Sequence record: NZ_CP024182.1
DNA length: 60,481 nt
Direction: 5' to 3' (one strand)
From: a plasmid
The notes under the pieces: generated by a model
What the model was told of the DNA's origin: nothing
What the model saw: only the letters and a program-made list of their open reading frames with translations
Databases searched by the model: none
Shown: in pieces, positions 2,297-49,080 of the stretch
How positions within the stretch are numbered: position 1 is the stretch's first letter
Layout: each line of letters begins with the position of its first letter
Program-made: the position numbers and the translations under genes

Positions 2297-2402
2297 TTAT
2301 CAGTAAGCATGAGCAAGTTATCTTGACGATTTGGCATTTTACTACTAAGATTTACAAAAATGTATTTACAATACTAAATAGATTGATTTAAAGTAGGCTT
2401 AA

Positions 2403-2699
2403 ATGAATTTTTCTTGGGATGAGAATAAGGCTGCCAGTAACTTTGAAAAACATAGTATTAGCTTTGAAGAAGCCATGCTCGTATTTGCTGACCCTTTTCT
2501 TTTGATGAGCCAAGATAGAATCGAAAATGGTGAAATGCGATGGCAGAGTATAGGAGAAATTGAAGGCATTGCTGTTATTCTGGTTGCCCATACTTGGTTT
2601 GATGATGACGGTGAGGAGTATATCCGTATTATTTCAGCCCGTCCTGCAGATAAGAAGGAAAGGAAACGTTATGAGCAAAATCGTTACTCGAAGTATTGA
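2403..2699 (+). CDS. brnT: BrnT-family toxin (type II TA ribonuclease, DUF497)
   Basis: 98 aa beginning MNFSWDENKAASNFEKHSISFEEAMLVFADP, the conserved BrnT N-terminus (FxWDxxKxxxNxxKHGxSFEEA). Confidence 0.8.
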   Translation: MNFSWDENKAASNFEKHSISFEEAMLVFADPFLLMSQDRIENGEMRWQSIGEIEGIAVILVAHTWFDDDGEEYIRIISARPADKKERKRYEQNRYSKY

Positions 2700-2976
2700 T
2701 TTAACCAATCCGCCTAAATTAAGCAAAGAAGCAAAGGCTCGTCTTGCTAAATTAAATGAGGCAGACATTGACTATTATGATATCCCACCGTTGACGGATG
2801 AATTTTGGGCGAACGCTGTTAGCAATCCGCTTTATAAGCCAACCAAACAAATCGCCACGGTACGCATAGACAGTGACGTATTGCTATGGCTCAAGTCTCA
2901 AGGCAAGGGTTATCAAACTCGGATGAATGCTATTTTAAGACAGGCGATGTTAACTGAGTTGGCAGAAACGCATTAG
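2671..2976 (+). CDS. brnA: BrnA-family antitoxin
   Basis: The ATG at 2671 overlaps the end of brnT, the typical TA coupling; the 138-aa track ORF from 2560 is an upstream over-extension. The C-terminus RIDSDVLLWLKSQGKGYQTRMNAILRQAM matches the BrnA RHH-like C-terminal signature. Confidence 0.7.
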   Translation: MSKIVTRSIDLTNPPKLSKEAKARLAKLNEADIDYYDIPPLTDEFWANAVSNPLYKPTKQIATVRIDSDVLLWLKSQGKGYQTRMNAILRQAMLTELAETH

Positions 2977-3214
2977 TCACCTACGATATCTGCTAACCCA
3001 AGTTTTTGTTTTAAAGGTAAATTTATGGGTTTGTTAGACGCTATTTAATAGACAAGTTAATTGACAAAAATAGGGGCGATTTGCCCCTGTTTTTTTGTGG
3101 AAATTGAAGTGTCTAAAAAACCAGCGTTTTATAAACACCTTGACCATTATCATTTTTATAAATACTTGATTAATTTCCTTAGCGTACTATTTTCTCCGCA
3201 TTCTGTGCTAATCC

Positions 3215-3312
3215 CAGTCTCAACTGTGAGCGTAGTTTGAATAGCAGTTTGCAATTTGTTAATTTGGCGTTCATTGCTCTGTTATTAAAAAGATTATGAA
3301 CAGGTTCTAACC
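3215..3312 (+). mobile_element. Remnant 3' end of an IS5-family (IS427-group-like) element
   Basis: The region translates to NCERSLNSSLQFVNLAFIALLLKRL*, nearly identical to the C-terminus of the IS5-family transposase at 35075-35602 (NCERHLNSSLQFTNFAFIALLLKRL*). It is followed by the same terminal sequence aagattatgaacaggttct. About 100 bp remain. Confidence 0.6.
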
Positions 3313-3327
3313 CCTAATGAGCTAGAT

Positions 3328-5352
3328 TTAAGATGTTTTTCTCATCAACCACATAAAGTACACACCACCTATGATAGCTGCGATTGTGCCTGCAGGGATT
3401 TCATAAGGGAAAATCACATACCGACCCAACCAGTCAGCCATTACCATCAAAATTGCCCCAAATAACATACTAATCGGTAATTGTTTATTAAGATTAACCG
3501 CCCCAAAATAAGTTGCCAAGTGTGGTATCATCAGCCCCACAAAACTTAACGGACCAACTGCTAGGGTAGTCGCTGTACTTAAGCCAGCAATCACCAACAG
3601 GACAGCCATATCTGCCATCCGAATACCAAGCCCTAACGACCTGGCGACTGAACGCCCTAGGCTCAATAATCGAAGGGGTTCAATTAATAGCCAACCGCAA
3701 GTGACTAAGATAATGGCAAAGCCGATAAGCCACCATACGGTTTCAGGTCGGGCACTATACGTTGTGCCAGATAGCCAACTTAATATCGATTGGAGTCTTG
3801 GGTCGCCTGCCAAATTGATTAAGCTTAGGACACCATTCATCAACGCCCCTATCGCCACCCCAACCAAAATTAAATAATCCGAGCTTAATTTTTTAGACAA
3901 CATTAAAATTAGCCACAAGGTTGCCAATGCACCCACAATACCACCGACAAAAATACTACCCAATGCCAGTGGCAAGCCTAATAACGAGGCAATCAGTAGA
4001 TAAATCAGCACCCCCACCGCAGAGCCAGAGCTGATACCTAGCACTTCAGGGCTTGCCATCGGGTTTCGGGTATAAGATTGAATCATCACACCTGCCGTTG
4101 CCAGCATAATTCCTGTGGCAGCCGCACTAAGCGTTCTGGGTAAGCGAAATTGATAAATCATCTCGCTATCCCATGATAGCCCCCAACCGCCCGTATGGAT
4201 ATTTTTGGTAAACCCCAATGCCATCATAATAATGACAAACAATGCCAAACTTAAACCTACATAAGTCATGGGAGTAATGGCTCGCTGGCGATAGTGGGTA
4301 AAAGTCGCCGTATCACCGAGCGTTTGGTGACGCTGCCGTAAAATCACCCAAATAATCAAAGGTGCACCCAAAATACCTGTGATTGCCCCCACAGGAATCA
4401 CCACAGGCATTTTCTGCATGAGCATCATCACCACATTACTGGCAAACCATAACAGCCCACCACCGAGCAAAAACCCCAATACCAACCGACTGGCTAACTG
4501 TCGTACCCGACTGATATTAACCAAAGTTGCCGCACCCAGCCCCACAAAGCTTAACACCCCAACCTGACTGACAACCAAAGCCACTAGTACCGCCACCAGT
4601 ACCAATACCAATGCTCGTATCGTGGAGATAGGCACACCCAGACTTTTGGCTTGGGTATCATCCAAGCTCATCAAGCTAAGTGGTTTGAGCAAAGGAACAA
4701 CCAAAAGGGGTAGAGCGATTGTGGTAATGGCAAGTAACTGGGTACTTTGCCAACCAAGTTGAGAGAGCACACCCCCGCCCCAAACCATGACGCCCAAGGA
4801 TTTTTCCGAAAAAAACAACATCATTAATGAGGACAAAGCTGAAAAGAAAATATTAATAATCAAGCCAGACAAAACTAAAACCACAGGATTAAAACGGCTT
4901 GGCATCGCCATAAGCCACACCAGCCCCATACTCATAAGTGAGCCAATCAGTGCCACCCAAAAATTACCATACAAGCCAAGATTCGGCAAAAACAAGGTGA
5001 CAATCAACAGTGCCATTTGAGCACCGCTACCCACTGCCAATGTGGTATCCGAAGCCAGTGGATTTTTTACCAGTTGTTGTAGTAACAGACTGGCAACCCC
5101 CAGTAGCCCACCTGCCATGATAGCTACCAATGTGGTGGGTAACAGCTTGAGCTGTGTGGCTAACTCCTGCACGCTTAACTGTTGGCTTGCCGTAAACAGA
5201 TGAGCAATAGGGGCATGCCATAATTGAGCGAATAGATAATAACTACTAGCAACAATCAGCCCAAGCCAACATATAATGCCAACAAATTGCTTAACAAAAG
5301 ACTTATTCACAACACGGCTACGGGTATTTTGGGTGATAACGCTTTTTTTCAT
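3328..5352 (-). CDS. Iron-siderophore ABC transporter permease, fused double FecCD domain (FhuB-like)
   Basis: 674 aa, very hydrophobic, with two repeated permease halves. It forms an operon with an ATPase and a binding protein. Confidence 0.85.
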   Translation of the reverse strand: MKKSVITQNTRSRVVNKSFVKQFVGIICWLGLIVASSYYLFAQLWHAPIAHLFTASQQLSVQELATQLKLLPTTLVAIMAGGLLGVASLLLQQLVKNPLASDTTLAVGSGAQMALLIVTLFLPNLGLYGNFWVALIGSLMSMGLVWLMAMPSRFNPVVLVLSGLIINIFFSALSSLMMLFFSEKSLGVMVWGGGVLSQLGWQSTQLLAITTIALPLLVVPLLKPLSLMSLDDTQAKSLGVPISTIRALVLVLVAVLVALVVSQVGVLSFVGLGAATLVNISRVRQLASRLVLGFLLGGGLLWFASNVVMMLMQKMPVVIPVGAITGILGAPLIIWVILRQRHQTLGDTATFTHYRQRAITPMTYVGLSLALFVIIMMALGFTKNIHTGGWGLSWDSEMIYQFRLPRTLSAAATGIMLATAGVMIQSYTRNPMASPEVLGISSGSAVGVLIYLLIASLLGLPLALGSIFVGGIVGALATLWLILMLSKKLSSDYLILVGVAIGALMNGVLSLINLAGDPRLQSILSWLSGTTYSARPETVWWLIGFAIILVTCGWLLIEPLRLLSLGRSVARSLGLGIRMADMAVLLVIAGLSTATTLAVGPLSFVGLMIPHLATYFGAVNLNKQLPISMLFGAILMVMADWLGRYVIFPYEIPAGTIAAIIGGVYFMWLMRKTS

Positions 5353-41344: not shown

Positions 41345-44300
41345 ATGAATCAAGTGTACCGTGTGGTATTTAATAGATCATTGGGCGTATGGCAGTGTGT
41401 CGCTGAAACGGCAAAAGCTCGTGGTAAATCATCGAGTAAATTGGGTAAATCATCAGCTATTTCATTATTATCACTGATGAATATAGGCACTCTTTTACCT
41501 GCTCATGCATTAGATACTTATTATCAAACCGGTTCGACTGTACTTAATGAGCCTGTCTACAATGCTAATGGTGACAGAGTAACCAATACTGGAACATCAC
41601 TTACTGCCAAACACATCATTGTCAATGACCCTACCTTTGCAAAAAGCTTTGACATTGAGAATAATGGACAGGTAGTGGCTGATAGCTTGGCAATTAGCAA
41701 TGGGGGTAAAACATATACCTCTCAAGGCGGCAAATTATCAGTAGAAAAACTAATAATTAGTAATGGTTCATATGATTCTAGTTCGGAATTTGCTGTAATT
41801 CGCGATGGAGCATTACAGACAAAATCAACTATTGTTGGTGACACTGGTAATGCTAATGGATTGCACGTATTCTCTAGTTATAGTACTGACTCGTTATTGC
41901 TAGGTAATGCAGTTAATAGTTATGGTGAAGCAAGTGCATCCAATTCTACAGGCGGTACAAGTAATATCAATGTAACAGGATTAACTACGGTTGGCTATCA
42001 AGGACATGGTTATTTAAGTGCAGTATCGGGTGGAGTTATTCACAGTGGTTCCATGATAGTAGGTAATGAAAGTAATAAAGTAGGAAATAAGGAAAATCAT
42101 CTTGGTGCAACTATAGATAGTAAAGTCGTTATTGATAATGACTTAATATTAGGTAATAAAGCTAACAGTTTTGGTGATGTAGGTTTTACATCAGGTAGTT
42201 CTCTATCAGTAGGTAGAGACATGGTCATTGGCAAACAAGGTACGGGAGAAGCTGGATTTATCTCAAAAACCAACTTGAGTATTGGTAGAGATCTAATAGT
42301 TGGCGAAGAAGGTAAGGGTGATTTATTTGTTTCCGCTGATAGCAATGCCCAGGTGAATGGCGTTACTTACATTGGCGGAGCGGGTCTTAATCCAAACGCG
42401 GAAGGTTCTATTCGTATCAATAGCTCTAATTTTAATGCTCCTATTATTAGTTTTGGTGGATTCGGAAAAGGAGAGTTGTCTTTATTTCAAGATGCCGTAT
42501 TGAAAACTACAGAAATTAATCGTAATGCCCAAGCTAGACCCTCTACTATCAATTTAAACGGTGGGACGATTCAATTGACAGCCTCTCAACCCGAGTTATT
42601 TGGTAATTTTACCTCAACAGATGTGATTAGCATAAACAACTTAGGTGGAACAATTGAGACACTAGCCAATAATGTAAATATTTTTGATAAGGCGGTTATT
42701 GGTGGCTCCGGTAACTTTATAAAAAAAGGCACAGGCTTACTAGCTATGAACACGGCTAGTAAAGCTTGGACCGGTGAGACTCACATTGACCAAGGCACTT
42801 TAAAACTAAATGGCGATTACGCCATGCGTGATGGTGAGGTTCTAGCGGTAGGTCTAAATACAGCGGACGATTATGGTAAGTTATTAGTTGATGGTAATGC
42901 AGATATTAGTAAAGGTAAATTGCAAATTAATGCGTCTCAAGCCGTTCAAGCAATGCCAAACTCCAGTACTTGGCTAAATGTGGTTAAAGCTACTGCACGT
43001 AACGGTCAATTTGCCACACTCAGTGATAATAGTCCATTAGTAGATTTTTATGCGGACTATTCTGACCCTACGGCCGTCCATATAAAACTTGGTACAACGC
43101 CAACGCCAACGCCAACGCCAACGCCAACGCCAACGCCAACGCCAACGCCAACGCCAACGCCAACGCCAACGCCAACGCCAACGCCAACGCCAACGCCAAC
43201 GCCAACGCCAACGCCAACGCCAACGCCAACGCCAACGCCAACGCCAACGCCAACGCCAACGCCAACGCCAACGCCAACGCCAACGCCAACGCCAACGCCA
43301 ACGCCAACGCCAACGCCAACGCCAACGCCAACGCCAACGCCAACGCCAACGCCAACGCCAACGCCAACGCCAACGCCAACGCCAACGCCAACGCCAACGC
43401 CAACGCCAACGCCAACGCCAACGCCAACGCCAACGCCAACGCCAACGCCAACGCCAACGCCAACGCCAACGCCAACGCCAACGCCAACGCCAACGCCAAC
43501 GCCAACGCCAACGCCAACGCCAACGCCAACGCCAACGCCAACGCCAAAAGAGACTAGCGCCTTTGTAGACGCTGTCAAGCAAAATAACAACCTTTCGTCA
43601 GAAAGTTTGGCAAAAGTTTTAGATAAAGCTATCGATACTAAAATTGCCACCGGCAACAGTGTATTAGCGGATAATCTAATTAATAAAACGTTGAATTTTA
43701 GTCAGGTTGAACTATCTCAAACAGCGAGTCAGTTGCAGCCTTTATTTATGGGCTCAATCAACCGCATAATTACTGACAGCAATAATTTAGCTCTTGACGC
43801 TATTCACGACTCAACTATCAGCCGTGAACGTAATGTTTGGGCAAAAGCCATTGGCACTCAATCTACAAAAGATCATAAGGGTAGCTTAGTAGGTTATGAT
43901 AATAAGGATACTGGCGTTATCGTAGGTAGTGATATTCCATTGAATGACAAACTGAATTTGGGATTAGCTGTCTCTTATATCAACAGTGATGCTGATACCA
44001 ATGGACATACGATCAATCATGAGATGAAAGCGGACTCTCTACAAGTTTTAGGCTATGCTGACTACCAAGCGACGCCTGAGACTAAAGCTAATTTCCATGT
44101 AGGCGCTGGTCAAAGTGATATTAAAGGTAAACGTCACATTGGATTTGCAAATGCAACTGCCGAGGCTGATTATAATGCTAATACCTTACAAGCAGGGATA
44201 GGATTAAGCCATCGTATTGGTACTGAGCAAAGAAACATTACGCCATTTGCGCAGTTTAATTATGCTCAGGTCAAATCAGACGCTTATAATGAAACCGGTG

Positions 44301-44650
44301 CTGGTGCGTTTAACCTTGCAGTTGAAAAGCAAAATTATAACAGTATGCGCTCAACGCTTGGGGTAAATCTATCACAGCCTATTGGGCAAAAGGTTTCTTT
44401 GACAGGGACGCTTGCAGGTGCAATCGAAAATGGCGATCCACGCACAGATATCACAGCAAGTTTTGTTGATACGCCTAACAGTCGTTTCACTACGCTGGGT
44501 CAAGAAGTAGGACGTGAAGTTGGTGTTGCAGGTGTTGGGTTGAGTTATAAACCAACAGCCAATACTAGCATTTCTGCTAACTACACCGGTGAATGGCGTA
44601 AAAATTATGACAACCAAGGGGTGTCATTGGTATTCACAAGTAAGTTCTAA
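41345..44650 (+). CDS. Type Va autotransporter with (TP)n linker
   Basis: 1101 aa. It has an extended signal peptide region ([25 protein letters not shown]). The passenger domain is rich in G/N/S/T beta-strand repeats. About 77 Thr-Pro dipeptides precede a C-terminal beta-barrel domain ending …SLVFTSKF (terminal aromatic). A bidirectional terminator follows. Confidence 0.85.
43089..43550 (+). repeat. Perfect hexanucleotide tandem repeat (ACGCCA)x~77 encoding (Thr-Pro)n
   Basis: 462 bp with no interruption visible in the sequence. All alternate-frame ORFs crossing it (43037-43656, both strands) are repeat artefacts. Confidence 0.95.
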
Positions 44651-45781: not shown

Positions 45782-48316
45782 CTAAATCCCAAACCCTCTA
45801 AACGGCTCATGTCTTAGCTCTTTATCTTTTTCCAACTTTTTAGCGGTCAGCGTTAATTGGGCATACCCCGACAAATCATACGGATGGCTGCTGACATAAG
45901 ATTCTGCCTGCCGCTGGTTCATCTTGTGTTGCTTACCATCAGAGTCCATCGAATACAACGTCCCTTCCTTGGCATACCCCACCACCTGCTGTTTTAACCT
46001 GTCAAATAACTTCTTGAACAACTCGATCACGGCTTTAACAACGGCTGAAACTGTGCCAACGACTGTGCCAAAGTCGTTTGATGCTGTTTTAAATTGCTGA
46101 GCGTCGTGGTCATATCCTGTTTTAAGCAGGTGAGCTCGTCGATTAAATTTTCTAAGTCTTGCTGTTCGCTGCTCTGCTGTTTCAGTGAGTCCTGCAATGT
46201 CTTCACCGATGCCTGTAAGCTGTTGATTGACTTTTCGATGTCGCTGTCGCCGTCGGGTTGTATGCTCTGCAATTTGCTCAAGGCTTGCTGTATCTTCTCC
46301 TGCAATTTTTGAAATTCTTCTCGTCCTTTTTTCAGTGTTGCTATCTCGGATTTCTGTAGCTTGTCTAATTCGTCCAAGTATTGGGTGATCTGCTGGTTGT
46401 GCGTCTCGGTCTTTTGGTTCACTTGCTCGCTTAGGTGGGTTGATAGCTGCTGATACAAGTTGGGCAACATCAATTCCAGATGTTTTTGTACCATCTCGTC
46501 GATTGTCTGGGATTGCTGCGCTTGGAGTTGGTTGAGCATCTGGCTCACTTGGCTGTGCAAATCGCTCGACAGCTCGTTTAAGCGCTTGGTAATGAGCTGC
46601 TGTGTGGTAATGGGTTGCATGGTTATTTGTCTCTAGTTGGGACGGTAATACGGGTTTTGGTTGATATAAAGCGTCGGATAGCCAAAGCCATTTTTTTGGC
46701 ATACGGCGCTGTTGGGATATTTGGGGGTAATATTGATACCACCGCCATAACCCGGCTGGATATCGGTAAGGGCTTGGGCTTGGTATTGAATCGGGGTACG
46801 ATTGATTTGTTGATTGAGTAAGCTTAGTTCTTTTTGACTTTGGTCGACTAAGACCTTGGTTTCCTGCCAATCCTGGTACTGGCTGTGATTGATCAGTGCT
46901 AATATCCCCATCAGCAGTAGCAGTCCCCCCAATAGGCTGCCCATGACGATCCCTAGGCTCAGTTTGTTGCGTGCTAGTTGCCCAATCAGCACCCTGCTTT
47001 GCTGTTGGCTGTACTCGATCATCTCGATATCCGCTTGGTGACGCTCGTCCATCTGCTGACGCAGGGTTTGCTGTTGGCGTTGGTGATGCTGTAGGGTGGT
47101 TTGTGTCTCGTGGGTTATGGCTTGGCGTAATTGACTGCTCTGCTTCGTCAAGTGGGTTTGGGTACGCTGATAATCGTTGCTGGTCTGCTGCTTGAGCTGA
47201 TCGATTTGCGTCGACACCCCAAGCAAGGTCTGTTTGGCGCTCTCCAAGGTCTGACAGGTCTGATTGAGCCAGCTTTGATGCTGCTTTAGATGGCTGTCGC
47301 TTAAGTTTTGACTGCTGTCTTGATAACGCTCGAGCAGCGCGCAAATTTTCGTCATACCGCTGATAATGTCGTTCTCGACGTTTTTCAAGCTCGCTTGAAA
47401 AAGTTGCTGCTGCTTGTCTAAGCTGTTTTGCTCGGTCATCTGCTGAGATTTGATTTGCTGCTGGGTCTGCGCCTTTGCGTTCTGCAACATATCGAATAAC
47501 GGATTCGGTGGCGTCTCGCTCATAAATCACACCTTTTAGTTTAATATTTTTTTTCGTGGGATCAGGGTTTTTAATACTGATACTGTCTTTACCTTGACGA
47601 GAGATTTCAAAACCGTATTTTGTCAGCATATCGGCAATGTCATCTTGACCTTTGAGTGGCTTACCCTGCTGTCGTCGCAGCTCAGATTGGGTTAACACCA
47701 AATCAGTAAGCGCATTTTTGATATCTTCTACCTCAGTAAAGCGTTTTAACTTATCGATGATTGACTGCTTATCTGACGTTGCCCAATCTTTAACAATGTT
47801 TGGGGCCATACTGGGGGTCACATCTCGACGGTTATTTAAATCCGCGGGATTAACAAAGCCGTACCTATCATTGGTCAAATCTTTCCAACTATTGACCAAC
47901 GCTAAATCCCGATAATGGTAATACACCTGTAAATGATTACCCGAGATCAGCTCAACATTGGGAAAGACAAAGTTAAGCTCGACCCGACCTTTATCGGTAT
48001 GCTCCACCCAGTACGACGTATACTGATGGGGTTGTAAGCCAACAAACATCATGGCTTCGAAATCTTCGATAATCTCAAATTTTTGGGCGTCAGTTAACAG
48101 ATCTTTTTCATGAAAGCTTAAACAGCCACTGCTATAAACTTTGGCAAACGGCAAGCCATTAATAATCTCAGTGACCTCATCCGGATCGCCCAATAGCAAA
48201 CGCGCTTTTTCACGCGGTTGATCGTCACTTCCCAGTAAATAATGTTTAACAGCTGACCCACCTAAGGTACGTCTGTCATCATCCGTGCCGCCTCGTTTAA
48301 AAAATTTGGTTAGCAT
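45782..48316 (-). CDS. mobA: MbeA/MobA-like relaxase of the ColE1 (HEN-motif, MOBP5/HEN) family, 844 aa
   Basis: The N-terminus is collinear with ColE1 MbeA as I recall it (…LLGDPDEVTEIINGLPFAKVYSSGCLSFHEKDL…YWVEHTDKGRVELNFVFPNVELISGNHLQVYY, with the H-E-N motif in VEHTDKGRVELN). The middle section is low complexity and overlaps nested ORFs in another frame. Confidence 0.8.
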   Translation of the reverse strand: MLTKFFKRGGTDDDRRTLGGSAVKHYLLGSDDQPREKARLLLGDPDEVTEIINGLPFAKVYSSGCLSFHEKDLLTDAQKFEIIEDFEAMMFVGLQPHQYTSYWVEHTDKGRVELNFVFPNVELISGNHLQVYYHYRDLALVNSWKDLTNDRYGFVNPADLNNRRDVTPSMAPNIVKDWATSDKQSIIDKLKRFTEVEDIKNALTDLVLTQSELRRQQGKPLKGQDDIADMLTKYGFEISRQGKDSISIKNPDPTKKNIKLKGVIYERDATESVIRYVAERKGADPAANQISADDRAKQLRQAAATFSSELEKRRERHYQRYDENLRAARALSRQQSKLKRQPSKAASKLAQSDLSDLGERQTDLAWGVDANRSAQAADQQRLSAYPNPLDEAEQSITPSHNPRDTNHPTASPTPTANPASADGRASPSGYRDDRVQPTAKQGADWATSTQQTEPRDRHGQPIGGTATADGDISTDQSQPVPGLAGNQGLSRPKSKRTKLTQSTNQSYPDSIPSPSPYRYPAGLWRWYQYYPQISQQRRMPKKWLWLSDALYQPKPVLPSQLETNNHATHYHTAAHYQALKRAVERFAQPSEPDAQPTPSAAIPDNRRDGTKTSGIDVAQLVSAAINPPKRASEPKDRDAQPADHPILGRIRQATEIRDSNTEKRTRRISKIAGEDTASLEQIAEHTTRRRQRHRKVNQQLTGIGEDIAGLTETAEQRTARLRKFNRRAHLLKTGYDHDAQQFKTASNDFGTVVGTVSAVVKAVIELFKKLFDRLKQQVVGYAKEGTLYSMDSDGKQHKMNQRQAESYVSSHPYDLSGYAQLTLTAKKLEKDKELRHEPFRGFGI
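46027..46620 (-). CDS. Second nested coiled-coil ORF inside the relaxase gene (same alternative frame), 197 aa
   Basis: It is in frame with 46633-47523, separated by one stop codon. It is a heptad-like Q/L/E/K-rich sequence. Confidence 0.4.
   Translation of the reverse strand: MQPITTQQLITKRLNELSSDLHSQVSQMLNQLQAQQSQTIDEMVQKHLELMLPNLYQQLSTHLSEQVNQKTETHNQQITQYLDELDKLQKSEIATLKKGREEFQKLQEKIQQALSKLQSIQPDGDSDIEKSINSLQASVKTLQDSLKQQSSEQQDLENLIDELTCLKQDMTTTLSNLKQHQTTLAQSLAQFQPLLKP
46633..47523 (-). CDS. Nested MbeB/MobB-like ORF inside the relaxase gene (alternative frame), 296 aa
   Basis: Q/L/E-rich coiled-coil protein with one clear TM helix (LSLGIVMGSLLGGLLLLMGILALI). The same frame continues after a single stop into 46027-46620. 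ColE1 is known to carry mbeB and mbeD nested out of frame within mbeA. Confidence 0.5.
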   Translation of the reverse strand: MSETPPNPLFDMLQNAKAQTQQQIKSQQMTEQNSLDKQQQLFQASLKNVENDIISGMTKICALLERYQDSSQNLSDSHLKQHQSWLNQTCQTLESAKQTLLGVSTQIDQLKQQTSNDYQRTQTHLTKQSSQLRQAITHETQTTLQHHQRQQQTLRQQMDERHQADIEMIEYSQQQSRVLIGQLARNKLSLGIVMGSLLGGLLLLMGILALINHSQYQDWQETKVLVDQSQKELSLLNQQINRTPIQYQAQALTDIQPGYGGGINITPKYPNSAVCQKNGFGYPTLYINQNPYYRPN

Positions 48317-48320
48317 ACCA

Positions 48321-48827
48321 TTAACCAGTTAAATCGTTATTAAACGTGCTATTTTCTAGCGTTGAACTTTCTAATAAAGGATCACTGTCTTCACTGACAG
48401 TGTCCTCATCTTCCACCCCATTAAAATAATTTTTTTCAACTTGATAGTGCGCTTTTAATTCAGCCAATTGCTCAGCCATATTATCAATCGCTAGTGCTAA
48501 ATTTAACGTATCAATCGGATGATTTGCGTTTGCTTGTTGATGCGTATAGCGCACCAATTGATTTAAATTTTTACCCATGGCATGCAATTGTCGTAATAGT
48601 TTTGGGTCAACCGTAGGAAAATCGCGTTCACGTCTAGGTATAGTACCTTTTGTTAATATGGCACGCGCATAGCGTGCTAAATTCATACCTTGAGCTTTTG
48701 CTTCAAGCACAGCAAATTCTTCGTCACTAAAGCGAATGTTAAGACGTTTATCTCGTAATTTTTTCGATGATTTTTTTATTAGTACGTCGTCATCGCTTTG
48801 CTTTTTTTCGGCTGATTGTTGTGCCAT
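48321..48827 (-). CDS. mobC: MobC/MbeC-like relaxosome accessory protein (RHH)
   Basis: 168 aa. The segment LNIRFSDEEFAVLEAKAQGMNLARYARAIL is the MobC-family RHH signature. It lies 4 bp upstream of the relaxase. Confidence 0.8.
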   Translation of the reverse strand: MAQQSAEKKQSDDDVLIKKSSKKLRDKRLNIRFSDEEFAVLEAKAQGMNLARYARAILTKGTIPRRERDFPTVDPKLLRQLHAMGKNLNQLVRYTHQQANANHPIDTLNLALAIDNMAEQLAELKAHYQVEKNYFNGVEDEDTVSEDSDPLLESSTLENSTFNNDLTG

Positions 48828-48879: not shown

Positions 48880-49080
48880 GGGGTCTCCCCAATAAGCACC
48901 CATTTTGAACGCAACTTTGTGAAGCGATAACTGGGGGCTTGGGGTTTCAAAAGGGGGTAAGCCCCCTTTGCCAGAACGCAGAGACAACTAATTTACGTTA
49001 GTAAATTTGGTGTCTCTGCATGTGCTGGCTATGTCGAAACTAGCCACCTTTTGTTATTATTTCTGATTTTAGCATAGCTA
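48880..49080. promoter_or_regulatory. Candidate oriT / mob promoter region with multiple hairpins
   Basis: Inverted repeats aagggggtaagccccctt, gcagagacaactaatttacgttagtaaatttggtgtctctgc (9-bp arms with a nested palindrome) and tggctatgtcgaaactagcca. They lie immediately upstream of mobC. Confidence 0.5.

Follow-up and report, generated by a model that had tools for sequence, protein, structure and literature searches.

A mobilization locus in the plasmid sequence record NZ_CP024182.1 carries a relaxase gene of 844 codons in which about 1.49 kb of DNA is open in two reading frames of the same strand. The stretch analysed here, referred to as the window, is 60,481 nucleotides (nt) long. Over the overlap, purifying selection acts on the amino-acid (aa) sequence of two genes nested in the second frame, and the relaxase sequence drifts like that of a non-coding frame. 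The likely interpretation, in our view, is a mobilization cassette of the ColE1 (MOB-HEN) type, carried by a mobilizable plasmid of Moraxella osloensis, with nested genes that have grown to twice the usual size and a relaxase whose middle is a translated, unconstrained spacer.

The relaxase open reading frame (ORF) is denoted frame A. Frame B is +1 relative to it and contains ORF1 and ORF2, and the remaining frame (+2) is denoted frame C. The main elements of the overlapping region are as follows.

45782-48316, minus strand: relaxase gene, frame A; an HUH (HEN) domain of the MbeA type is followed by about 500 stop-free spacer residues and by a C-terminal part
47524-48316, minus strand: N-terminal relaxase domain outside the overlap, aa 1-264, with Y26 and H106/D108/E113/N115 located by alignment with ColE1 MbeA
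47521-47537, minus strand: ORF1 start region, with AAGG in Lys-Gly codons and ATG in Tyr-Glu codons of the relaxase motif KLKGxxYE
46633-47523, minus strand: nested gene 1 (ORF1), frame B, 296 aa; positional equivalent of mbeB/mobB
46027-46620, minus strand: nested gene 2 (ORF2), frame B, 197 aa, predicted all-helical; positional equivalent of mbeD/mobD
45782-46026, minus strand: C-terminal relaxase part outside the overlap, aa ~764-844, with FRGFGI as last residues and a frame-A substitution pattern

Selection on the two overlapping frames

Frame A is open throughout its length in the ORF listing. Frame B contains a single stop over relaxase codons 263-762 and is interrupted every 10-30 codons elsewhere in the relaxase gene; frame C has 37 stops over the same codons 263-762. 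The dual-coding overlap amounts to 1485 nt, or 59% of the relaxase gene, on the same strand. A preliminary description of this DNA, made from the sequence, had reported an open relaxase frame, a second same-strand frame open over about 1.5 kb, and in it a 296-aa ORF with a transmembrane (TM) helix followed by a 197-aa ORF. The ORF listing and the sequence agree with this, except in the position of the sole stop between the two ORFs, which had been given as 46630-46632 and is in fact a TAG at 46633-46635, 3 nt away. The ATG codons of ORF1 and ORF2 lie at 47521-47523 and 46618-46620, respectively, the latter 12 nt past the ORF1 stop.

A stop in frame A requires a frame-B codon ending in T before a frame-B codon that begins with AA, AG or GA. 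Each of 13 sequences compared has 133-157 such risky contexts at the third position of frame-B codons (B3), and T occurs in none of them; at other codon ends it is found in 17-24% of cases. The chance of meeting no frame-A stop is 1e-11 to 1e-17 per sequence. Synonymous shuffling that keeps the frame-B proteins creates 15-23 frame-A stops (mean of 15.5 for the window), with none of 5000 shuffles being free of stops. When the frame-A protein is kept instead, 7-10 stops appear in frame B (window mean 10.3) against the one or two that are seen, and none of 5000 such shuffles of the window had as few as one. Frame C contains 37-57 stops in the sequences compared. T makes up 6-16% of B3 positions, against 36% of third positions in the N-terminal domain, and its avoidance at B3 accounts for the raised G+C content of the overlap. 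The same avoidance is found in ColE1 itself, where T is absent from all 84 risky contexts. The double openness is not a matter of chance, and the comparative evidence shows both frames to be maintained by selection.

The frame on which selection acts changes along the gene. This is seen in omega, the ratio of nonsynonymous to synonymous substitution rates, which was estimated by region according to Nei and Gojobori, a method that is not designed for overlapping frames, and in the most variable codon position (A1 of frame A being the same as B3).

Non-overlapped N-terminus: omega 0.09-0.14 in frame A, 0.9-1.2 in frame B and about 2 in frame C in most pairs; most variable position A3
ORF1 overlap: omega 0.9-1.7 in frame A and 0.24-0.56 in frame B; most variable position A1 (B3)
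ORF2 overlap: omega 1.2-2.4 in frame A and 0.29-0.54 in frame B; most variable position A1 (B3)
Last ~80 codons: omega 0.31 in frame A where measurable, frame B not coding; most variable position A3

Outside the overlap, both ends of the relaxase evolve under ordinary frame-A selection. Within the overlap, frame-B identity exceeds frame-A identity in all 30 lineage pairs (15/15 for ORF1 and 15/15 for ORF2, over identical alignment columns), while frame-A identity is about that of the non-coding frame C. These comparisons show that purifying selection over the ~1.49 kb acts on the amino-acid sequence of the nested genes and that the frame-A sequence drifts like that of a non-coding frame. Two stretches, relaxase aa 265-340 and the region around GRIRQAT..RDSNTEKRTRRISK, combine weak periodicity with low divergence, which is only suggestive of constraint in both frames. 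A comparison of synonymous rates between the overlap and its flanks, as a measure of extra frame-A constraint, was abandoned as the loci are recombinant mosaics; the C-terminal part of the window locus, for example, is closer to that of locus L005 than to that of L002 (related loci and lineages are designated by L numbers).

The relaxase and the region upstream

The N-terminus of the relaxase matches the NCBIfam model relax_MbeA_E1 with E=6.8e-54, over aa 17-379 only. The score of 183.8 bits is below the cutoff of 500 of this model, which is of the 'exception' type for ColE1 MbeA itself, and the Pfam model Relaxase (PF03432) gives 23.7 bits, just under its cutoff of 24.6. The sub-cutoff scores indicate a diverged relative rather than an MbeA equivalog. 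Residue Y26, in GGSAVKHYLLG, is aligned with the tyrosine of ColE1 MbeA in GPVDYLLG, in a column that is invariant in nine sequences; Y19 has been given as the catalytic tyrosine of motif I (PMC9282650). Motif III, WVEH106TD108KGRVE113LN115F, is aligned with WVEHQDKGRLELNF of ColE1, and the SF motif is conserved too. The HEN (HxDx4ExN) motif is that of the MOB-HEN relaxases, in which it stands in place of the three-histidine motif (PMC9282650, PMC12857230). In the sister lineages L005, L011-L014, L018 and L019 the ELNF of the window and ColE1 is replaced by ELHF, with His for Asn; the resulting H-E-H motif III is intermediate between HEN and the canonical three-histidine motif. A sequence search of the PDB with the relaxase profile gave no match.

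In the overlapped part of the relaxase (the spacer, aa ~300-720) only 8-18% of the residues are I, L, V, F, M or W, and A, P, R, Q, S and T are abundant. In the last ~80 residues the sequence resembles that of an ordinary protein. Over the corresponding codons (45782-46026) frame B has six stops. A conserved frame-A start codon near the C-terminal part was not found across the lineages compared, and a separate small gene for this part was rejected on that ground. In most relaxases of the family the C-terminal tail has a loose basic/aromatic-Gly character, as in FRGFGR, TRYYGPSM, SRGWGMSL and GPSLGW.

Two further elements lie upstream of the relaxase gene.

48321-48827, minus strand: ribbon-helix-helix (RHH) accessory gene, 168 aa; positional equivalent of ColE1 mbeC
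48978-49019, minus strand: candidate origin of transfer (oriT), a 19-nt inverted repeat with a 4-nt loop, followed by GCGTTCTGGCAAAGGGGGCTTACCCCCTTTT on the minus strand

The 168-aa protein matches the Pfam family NikA-like (PF21983) with E=1.5e-10 and 41.5 bits (cutoff 27) and has additional weak matches to MobC and MobC_2; the distance from the end of its gene to the relaxase start is 4 nt. The inverted repeat at 48978-49019, upstream of the RHH gene, has 89% complementarity, and both the repeat and its 3' flank are conserved at this place in window-type and L002-type loci. By position only, it is a candidate for the oriT. Small G5/C5-rich inverted repeats at 48930-48970 (AAAGGGGG / CCCCCTTT and GGGGGCTT / AAGCCCCC) sit between the candidate oriT hairpin and the start of the RHH gene and are conserved in related loci.

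What the preliminary description had said of the relaxase and its neighbour agrees with these results: the N-terminus is MbeA-like and has the HEN motif, as the relax_MbeA_E1 match and the alignment with ColE1 MbeA indicate; the overlapped section is of low complexity and rich in S, A, P, R and T, as its composition shows; the C-terminal 80 residues again resemble ordinary protein, in composition and in their frame-A substitution pattern; and an MbeC-like RHH gene precedes the relaxase, with a NikA-like match above cutoff and ColE1 mbeC in the same place.

The nested genes and their relatives

The ATG of ORF1 is built from the Tyr-Glu codons (T-ATG-AG) of the relaxase motif KLKGxxYE, ATT TAT GAG CGA in frame A being read as ATG AGC GAG in frame B. 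A Shine-Dalgarno-like AAGG, contributed by the Lys-Gly codons AAAAGG, is located 8 nt before this ATG and is conserved in 13 loci. KLKGxxYE is invariant in the alignment of the family, and the start index of the first nested ORF equals the index of YE in nearly all of ~80 surveyed loci. Since the motif doubles as the start region of the nested gene, part of its invariance may reflect that start rather than relaxase chemistry.

For ORF1, a single-pass membrane protein is predicted, made up of a helical, Q-rich N-terminal part of ~190 aa, one TM helix and a C-terminal part of ~80 aa in which the motifs RTPIQxQAL and GGIxITPK are conserved. The TM helix corresponds to a 19-residue hydrophobic stretch with a mean Kyte-Doolittle value of ~2.5, which is present in all relatives too. 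The ORF2 product is predicted to form long helices: its AlphaFold2 model consists of long single helices with a mean predicted local distance difference test (pLDDT) score of 72, and no hydrophobic segment was found in it.

Searches of Pfam, NCBIfam and PADLOC gave no family match for ORF1 or ORF2; generic sub-threshold coiled-coil matches (Rad50, SMC, ZorA, apolipoprotein) were treated as artefacts of composition. The model MbeB_N (PF04837) had no match at E<=1 in ORF1 of the window, in four other Moraxella lineages or in Psychrobacter ORFs, and MbeD_MobD (PF04899) had none in ORF2 or its relatives; in the positive controls, ColE1 MbeB matched MbeB_N at 3.6e-22 and ColE1 MbeD matched MbeD_MobD at 1.9e-35. 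Direct comparison of ORF1 with ColE1 MbeB was not significant (BLASTP E=0.079, hhalign probability 5%), the hhalign probability for ORF2 and ColE1 MbeD was 0.3%, and comparison of ORF1 and ORF2 with the Psychrobacter nested ORF was not significant with either BLASTP or hhalign. The preliminary description had taken the nested frame for one or more genuine mobB-like genes. Position, architecture and selection bear this out; similarity in sequence to MbeB or MbeD does not, the two family models having passed over the nested ORFs and matched the ColE1 controls strongly. No tandem repeats that would explain the expansion were found in the overlap of the window. Scanning for promoters and terminators did not yield sites in excess of chance, and no promoter-like site was found on the coding strand inside the relaxase gene.

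Scans of genomes and metagenome contigs yielded 92 loci. Full-length relatives of the relaxase form at least 120 protein clusters of 825-852 aa, which cover 98-100% of the window relaxase and all come from Moraxella or Enhydrobacter. A word-indexed homologue search gave nine database matches for ORF1 and 32 for ORF2, with relatives in Moraxella and Enhydrobacter only. An exhaustive profile search with ORF2 among 1.84 billion proteins returned 12 clusters at E<1e-10, and no free-standing ORF2 homologue outside a relaxase gene was identified in it; weak matches of the profile to long repetitive proteins were judged spurious. Wherever the gene is complete, a +1 ORF encoding a TM helix lies within the relaxase frame, and a second ORF without one usually follows. 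The complete relaxases fall into a short group of 52 (405-652 aa, with 139-302 nested codons, median 239) and a long group of 22 besides that of the window (816-852 aa, 475-500 nested codons, median 481), which is in line with the earlier statement that the overlap is far longer than in ColE1 and the relaxase unusually long. Stops in the two frames of homologues were also looked for: both frames are open in the 22 further complete long loci, which represent at least six lineages with ORF1 identity down to 19%, and the sole natural exception found, L061, is discussed below.

In locus L034 (metagenome contig NODE_1680) the relaxase is incomplete, with at least 759 aa, and its gene holds nested ORFs of 310 and 186 aa. 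The first of these is unrelated in sequence to ORF1 of the window, which suggests an independent expansion of the nested genes; internal QELQE.HQ.LLQTI repeats in it hint that nested genes grow by internal duplication.

The locus was compared with the mobilization region of ColE1 (NC_001371). There, mbeC, a MobC-family gene, is found directly upstream of mbeA (517 aa), whose +1 frame contains mbeB (172 aa), which encodes a TM helix, and 6 nt further on mbeD (77 aa), whose product is helical. The window locus shares with ColE1 the order of RHH gene and relaxase, the relaxase motifs (Tyr, SF and HxDx4ELNF) and the avoidance of frame-A stops. ORF1 starts at the nucleotide homologous to the start of mbeB, in the Tyr-Glu codons of KLKGxxYE, and encodes a TM helix; a second nested gene, helical and without a TM helix, follows a few nucleotides on, and the relaxase runs past both. 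The differences are largely of size: the relaxase has 844 rather than 517 aa, the nested genes have 296 + 197 rather than 172 + 77 aa, and the overlap is 1485 nt (59% of the gene) rather than 753 nt (48%). The unique C-terminal part has ~80 rather than ~35 aa, and 12 rather than 6 nt separate the nested genes. In addition, the nested proteins have no detectable similarity to MbeB and MbeD, and the host is a 97-kb mosaic Moraxella plasmid, unlike the small ColE1 replicon. The layout has been known from ColE1 for decades and is not a new kind of system; the locus is a distinct, expanded variant of it.

The shorter relatives from Psychrobacter and metagenomes (L015, L017, L036 and ~50 ColE1-like metagenome loci), whose relaxase domains are 35-41% identical to that of the window, likewise have a nested +1 ORF that begins at the YE position and encodes a TM helix. 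They differ from the window in having relaxases of 405-652 aa and 139-302 nested codons, the Psychrobacter loci having a single nested ORF of 139-147 aa. In RSF1010/R1162, of the MOBQ family, the accessory gene mobB lies out of frame within the mobA linker between two functional relaxase parts; that system differs in its relaxase family, in having one nested gene of ~137 aa and in its C-terminal primase domain. In ColE1-like plasmids, mobB and mobD are encoded within mobA and treated as genuine genes (PMC5935869, PMC9282650), MbeB being part of the relaxosome and MbeD a putative entry-exclusion protein (PMC5935869). Dual coding over ~1-1.7 kb, with stop depletion and purifying selection, has been described for olg1 and olg2 of Pseudomonas aeruginosa, which are antisense, evolutionarily young and supported by ribosome profiling and proteomics (PMC8850804). 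Unlike these, the Moraxella overlap is on the same strand, is conserved across the whole relaxase family and is supported by sequence comparison.

The locus is 100% identical to that of the M. osloensis plasmid pYHS2 (NZ_CP024178) and to that of NZ_CP024187, and copies of ~82% identity are present on four other M. osloensis plasmids. Its annotation varies from record to record. The RefSeq record of the window lists only the relaxase and the upstream gene, leaving the nested ORFs unannotated, and the intact copy NZ_CP024178.1 (L001) likewise has the relaxase listed without the nested ORFs. Both are annotated in NZ_CP024181.1 (L004), where the 5' part of the relaxase gene has been removed by an IS3 element. 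The gene table of AP031473.1 (L003) gives the two nested ORFs and a 75-aa C-terminal relaxase fragment and no relaxase, though the relaxase frame is intact there. L004 is one of three truncated copies, the others being L006 and L016, that have been cut by insertion sequence or transposon insertions. The cassettes in L006 (NZ_CP024179.1) and L016 (CP069435.1) stand beside a Tn3-family transposase or lack the relaxase N-terminus; evidently, transposons that rearrange M. osloensis plasmids often target the cassette or leave it behind as a by-product. Moraxella-type mobilization cassettes nearly identical to L011 and L018 also occur in an assembly labelled 'Streptomyces cinereus JCM 3040' (L012 and L019; BMPS01000042.1 and BMPS01000034.1), most likely as contamination.

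The 97-kb host plasmid is itself a mosaic. No type IV secretion genes were found in the window, and the plasmid is typed as mobilizable by PLSDB, with the type 'MOBP,MOBP'. A second, unrelated mobilization module, consisting of a 344-aa relaxase and an upstream MobC-family gene (RefSeq annotation of pYHS2), is located at 2375-3733 of the window on the minus strand. An autotransporter-like ORF of 1101 aa at 41345-44650, on the plus strand, contains ~190 Thr-Pro dipeptide repeats in a very long run, which explain the G+C content of 0.58-0.67 around 43000-43600.

Readings of the locus and their implications

In an expanded ColE1-type cassette, ribosomes would read the relaxase frame through the whole overlap to produce the 844-aa protein, as the evolution of this frame suggests. 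The middle ~500 residues would form a hydrophilic, probably disordered tether of free sequence, with the nicking domain at one end and, at the other, a C-terminal part that has to sit on the same polypeptide, plausibly because the coupling protein or secretion system of a helper recognizes it. Since the sequence of the spacer is free, accessory genes could be overprinted on the tether and later double in size; and since frame-A selection acts on the C-terminal part, which lacks a start codon of its own, this part would be made only within the long protein. The nested genes would be read from the relaxase messenger RNA (mRNA), ORF1 using the start and Shine-Dalgarno-like site within the KG..YE codons and ORF2 starting by coupling or reinitiation 12 nt past the ORF1 stop. 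Position and architecture suggest that their products would play the roles of MbeB and MbeD, as relaxosome or membrane accessory proteins with a possible part in entry exclusion. Next to those of ColE1, the nested genes are about twice as long, and the passenger segment of the relaxase has grown along with them. The earlier judgement that both frames are probably translated finds support in the purifying selection on frame B and in the avoidance of frame-A stops across lineages.

Among the alternatives, the one that survives best, although we consider it improbable, is that translation of frame A is needed and its protein is not. Continuous translation could shield the polycistronic mRNA from Rho-dependent termination or decay, bring ribosomes to the 3' part or control how much the nested genes are translated, in which case neither the spacer nor its link to the C-terminal part would have a function of its own. 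The unconstrained sequence of the spacer would fit this, as would the lack of a promoter-like site on the coding strand inside the relaxase gene, with which the nested genes probably depend on the same transcript. However, the C-terminal part is under frame-A selection and in most lineages has no start of its own, its tail motifs are common to the family, and translation of the nested genes would by itself cover the mRNA.

It is very unlikely that the middle of the locus codes for nothing but the nested genes, with the relaxase a short N-terminal protein and frame A open merely through a T-poor composition rich in CAA, CAG and GAA. In the overlap, frame A scores no higher in identity than frame C and has an omega above 1, which would agree with this, as would the AP031473 gene table, which has the nested ORFs without a relaxase, and the frame-A stop in L061. 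Composition fails as the cause, however, as the third frame has 37-57 stops and shuffles that keep the composition create 15-23 frame-A stops, with 0/5000 stop-free. T is absent from ~140 risky B3 sites in each of 13 sequences, frame A is open in lineages with ORF1 identity of 19-36%, and the C-terminal ~80 codons are under frame-A purifying selection with no conserved start codon.

We give even less credence to the converse, in which only the relaxase is real and the +1 ORFs are accidents within a low-complexity linker. The RefSeq record of the window does list the relaxase alone, the nested ORFs have no curated family, and ORF2 matches generic coiled coils only. In contrast, the substitutions in the overlap fit frame B, with B3 as the most variable position, a low omega and higher identity than frame A in 30/30 pairs, and frame-B stops number 1-2 against the 7-10 expected with the frame-A protein fixed. 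Moreover, every lineage has kept the YE-codon start, the Shine-Dalgarno-like site, the TM helix and the lengths of the ORFs, and these correspond to mbeB and mbeD of ColE1. Programmed frameshifting that would yield fusions, for example of the relaxase domain with a frame-B product, and make the two frames one recoded gene, is hardly credible: the frames are on the same strand at a +1 offset and an AAAAAAA run lies ~40 nt upstream of the ORF1 start, but in every lineage frame B is closed by stops 1-6 codons ahead of the ORF1 ATG, this ATG and the Shine-Dalgarno-like site before it are conserved and belong to ORF1 itself, a conserved stop divides ORF1 from ORF2, and the ~500 further open codons of frame A would be left unexplained.

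Several points weigh against a dual-coding cassette with a disordered relaxase spacer. It is from evolution that we infer translation of either frame through the overlap, using omega values from a method meant for single frames, and the mosaic nature of the loci makes the rates of different regions not comparable. In L061 (metagenome contig ERZ501012.336, ~9x coverage), a G>A change turns TGG into TGA in frame A within the overlap and causes only a Gly>Asp substitution in frame B; this may be a sequencing error or a decaying relaxase copy with intact nested genes. The AlphaFold2 model of the full relaxase has a mean pLDDT of 36.9 and is poor even in the catalytic domain; it is thus of no use as an argument for disorder, and the case for a disordered spacer is made from composition alone. 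As no similarity of the nested proteins to MbeB or MbeD is detectable, their functional equivalence to these is argued from position and architecture.

As to what sets the locus apart, we lean slightly towards the following account: the same-strand overlap of ~1.49 kb would be at the top of the range proposed for prokaryotes, an essential transfer enzyme would contain ~500 residues of pure passenger, which have to be translated and free of stops and whose sequence is set entirely by the two nested genes, the nested genes would represent new families that replaced or outgrew MbeB and MbeD, the KG..YE codons would serve as ribosome-binding site and start, and the expansion in L034 would be independent.

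For annotation, the locus implies that two conserved proteins are absent from most records of this plasmid family and that relaxase length alone misleads on domain content. Long bacterial overlaps are often dismissed as mis-annotation; here the comparative evidence is unusually clean, with one frame selected for its sequence, the other only for its openness, and the third frame serving as an internal negative control. Since a knockout of either frame can be made silent in the other, a simple genetic design is available. Moraxella is a common genus associated with skin and laundry, and its nested proteins may prove to have new accessory or exclusion functions. The arrangement suggests that in MOB-HEN relaxases the extreme C-terminus has to form one polypeptide with the nicking domain, the region between being free to be overprinted and to expand, an idea that bears on how mobilizable plasmids dock onto the secretion systems of their helpers.

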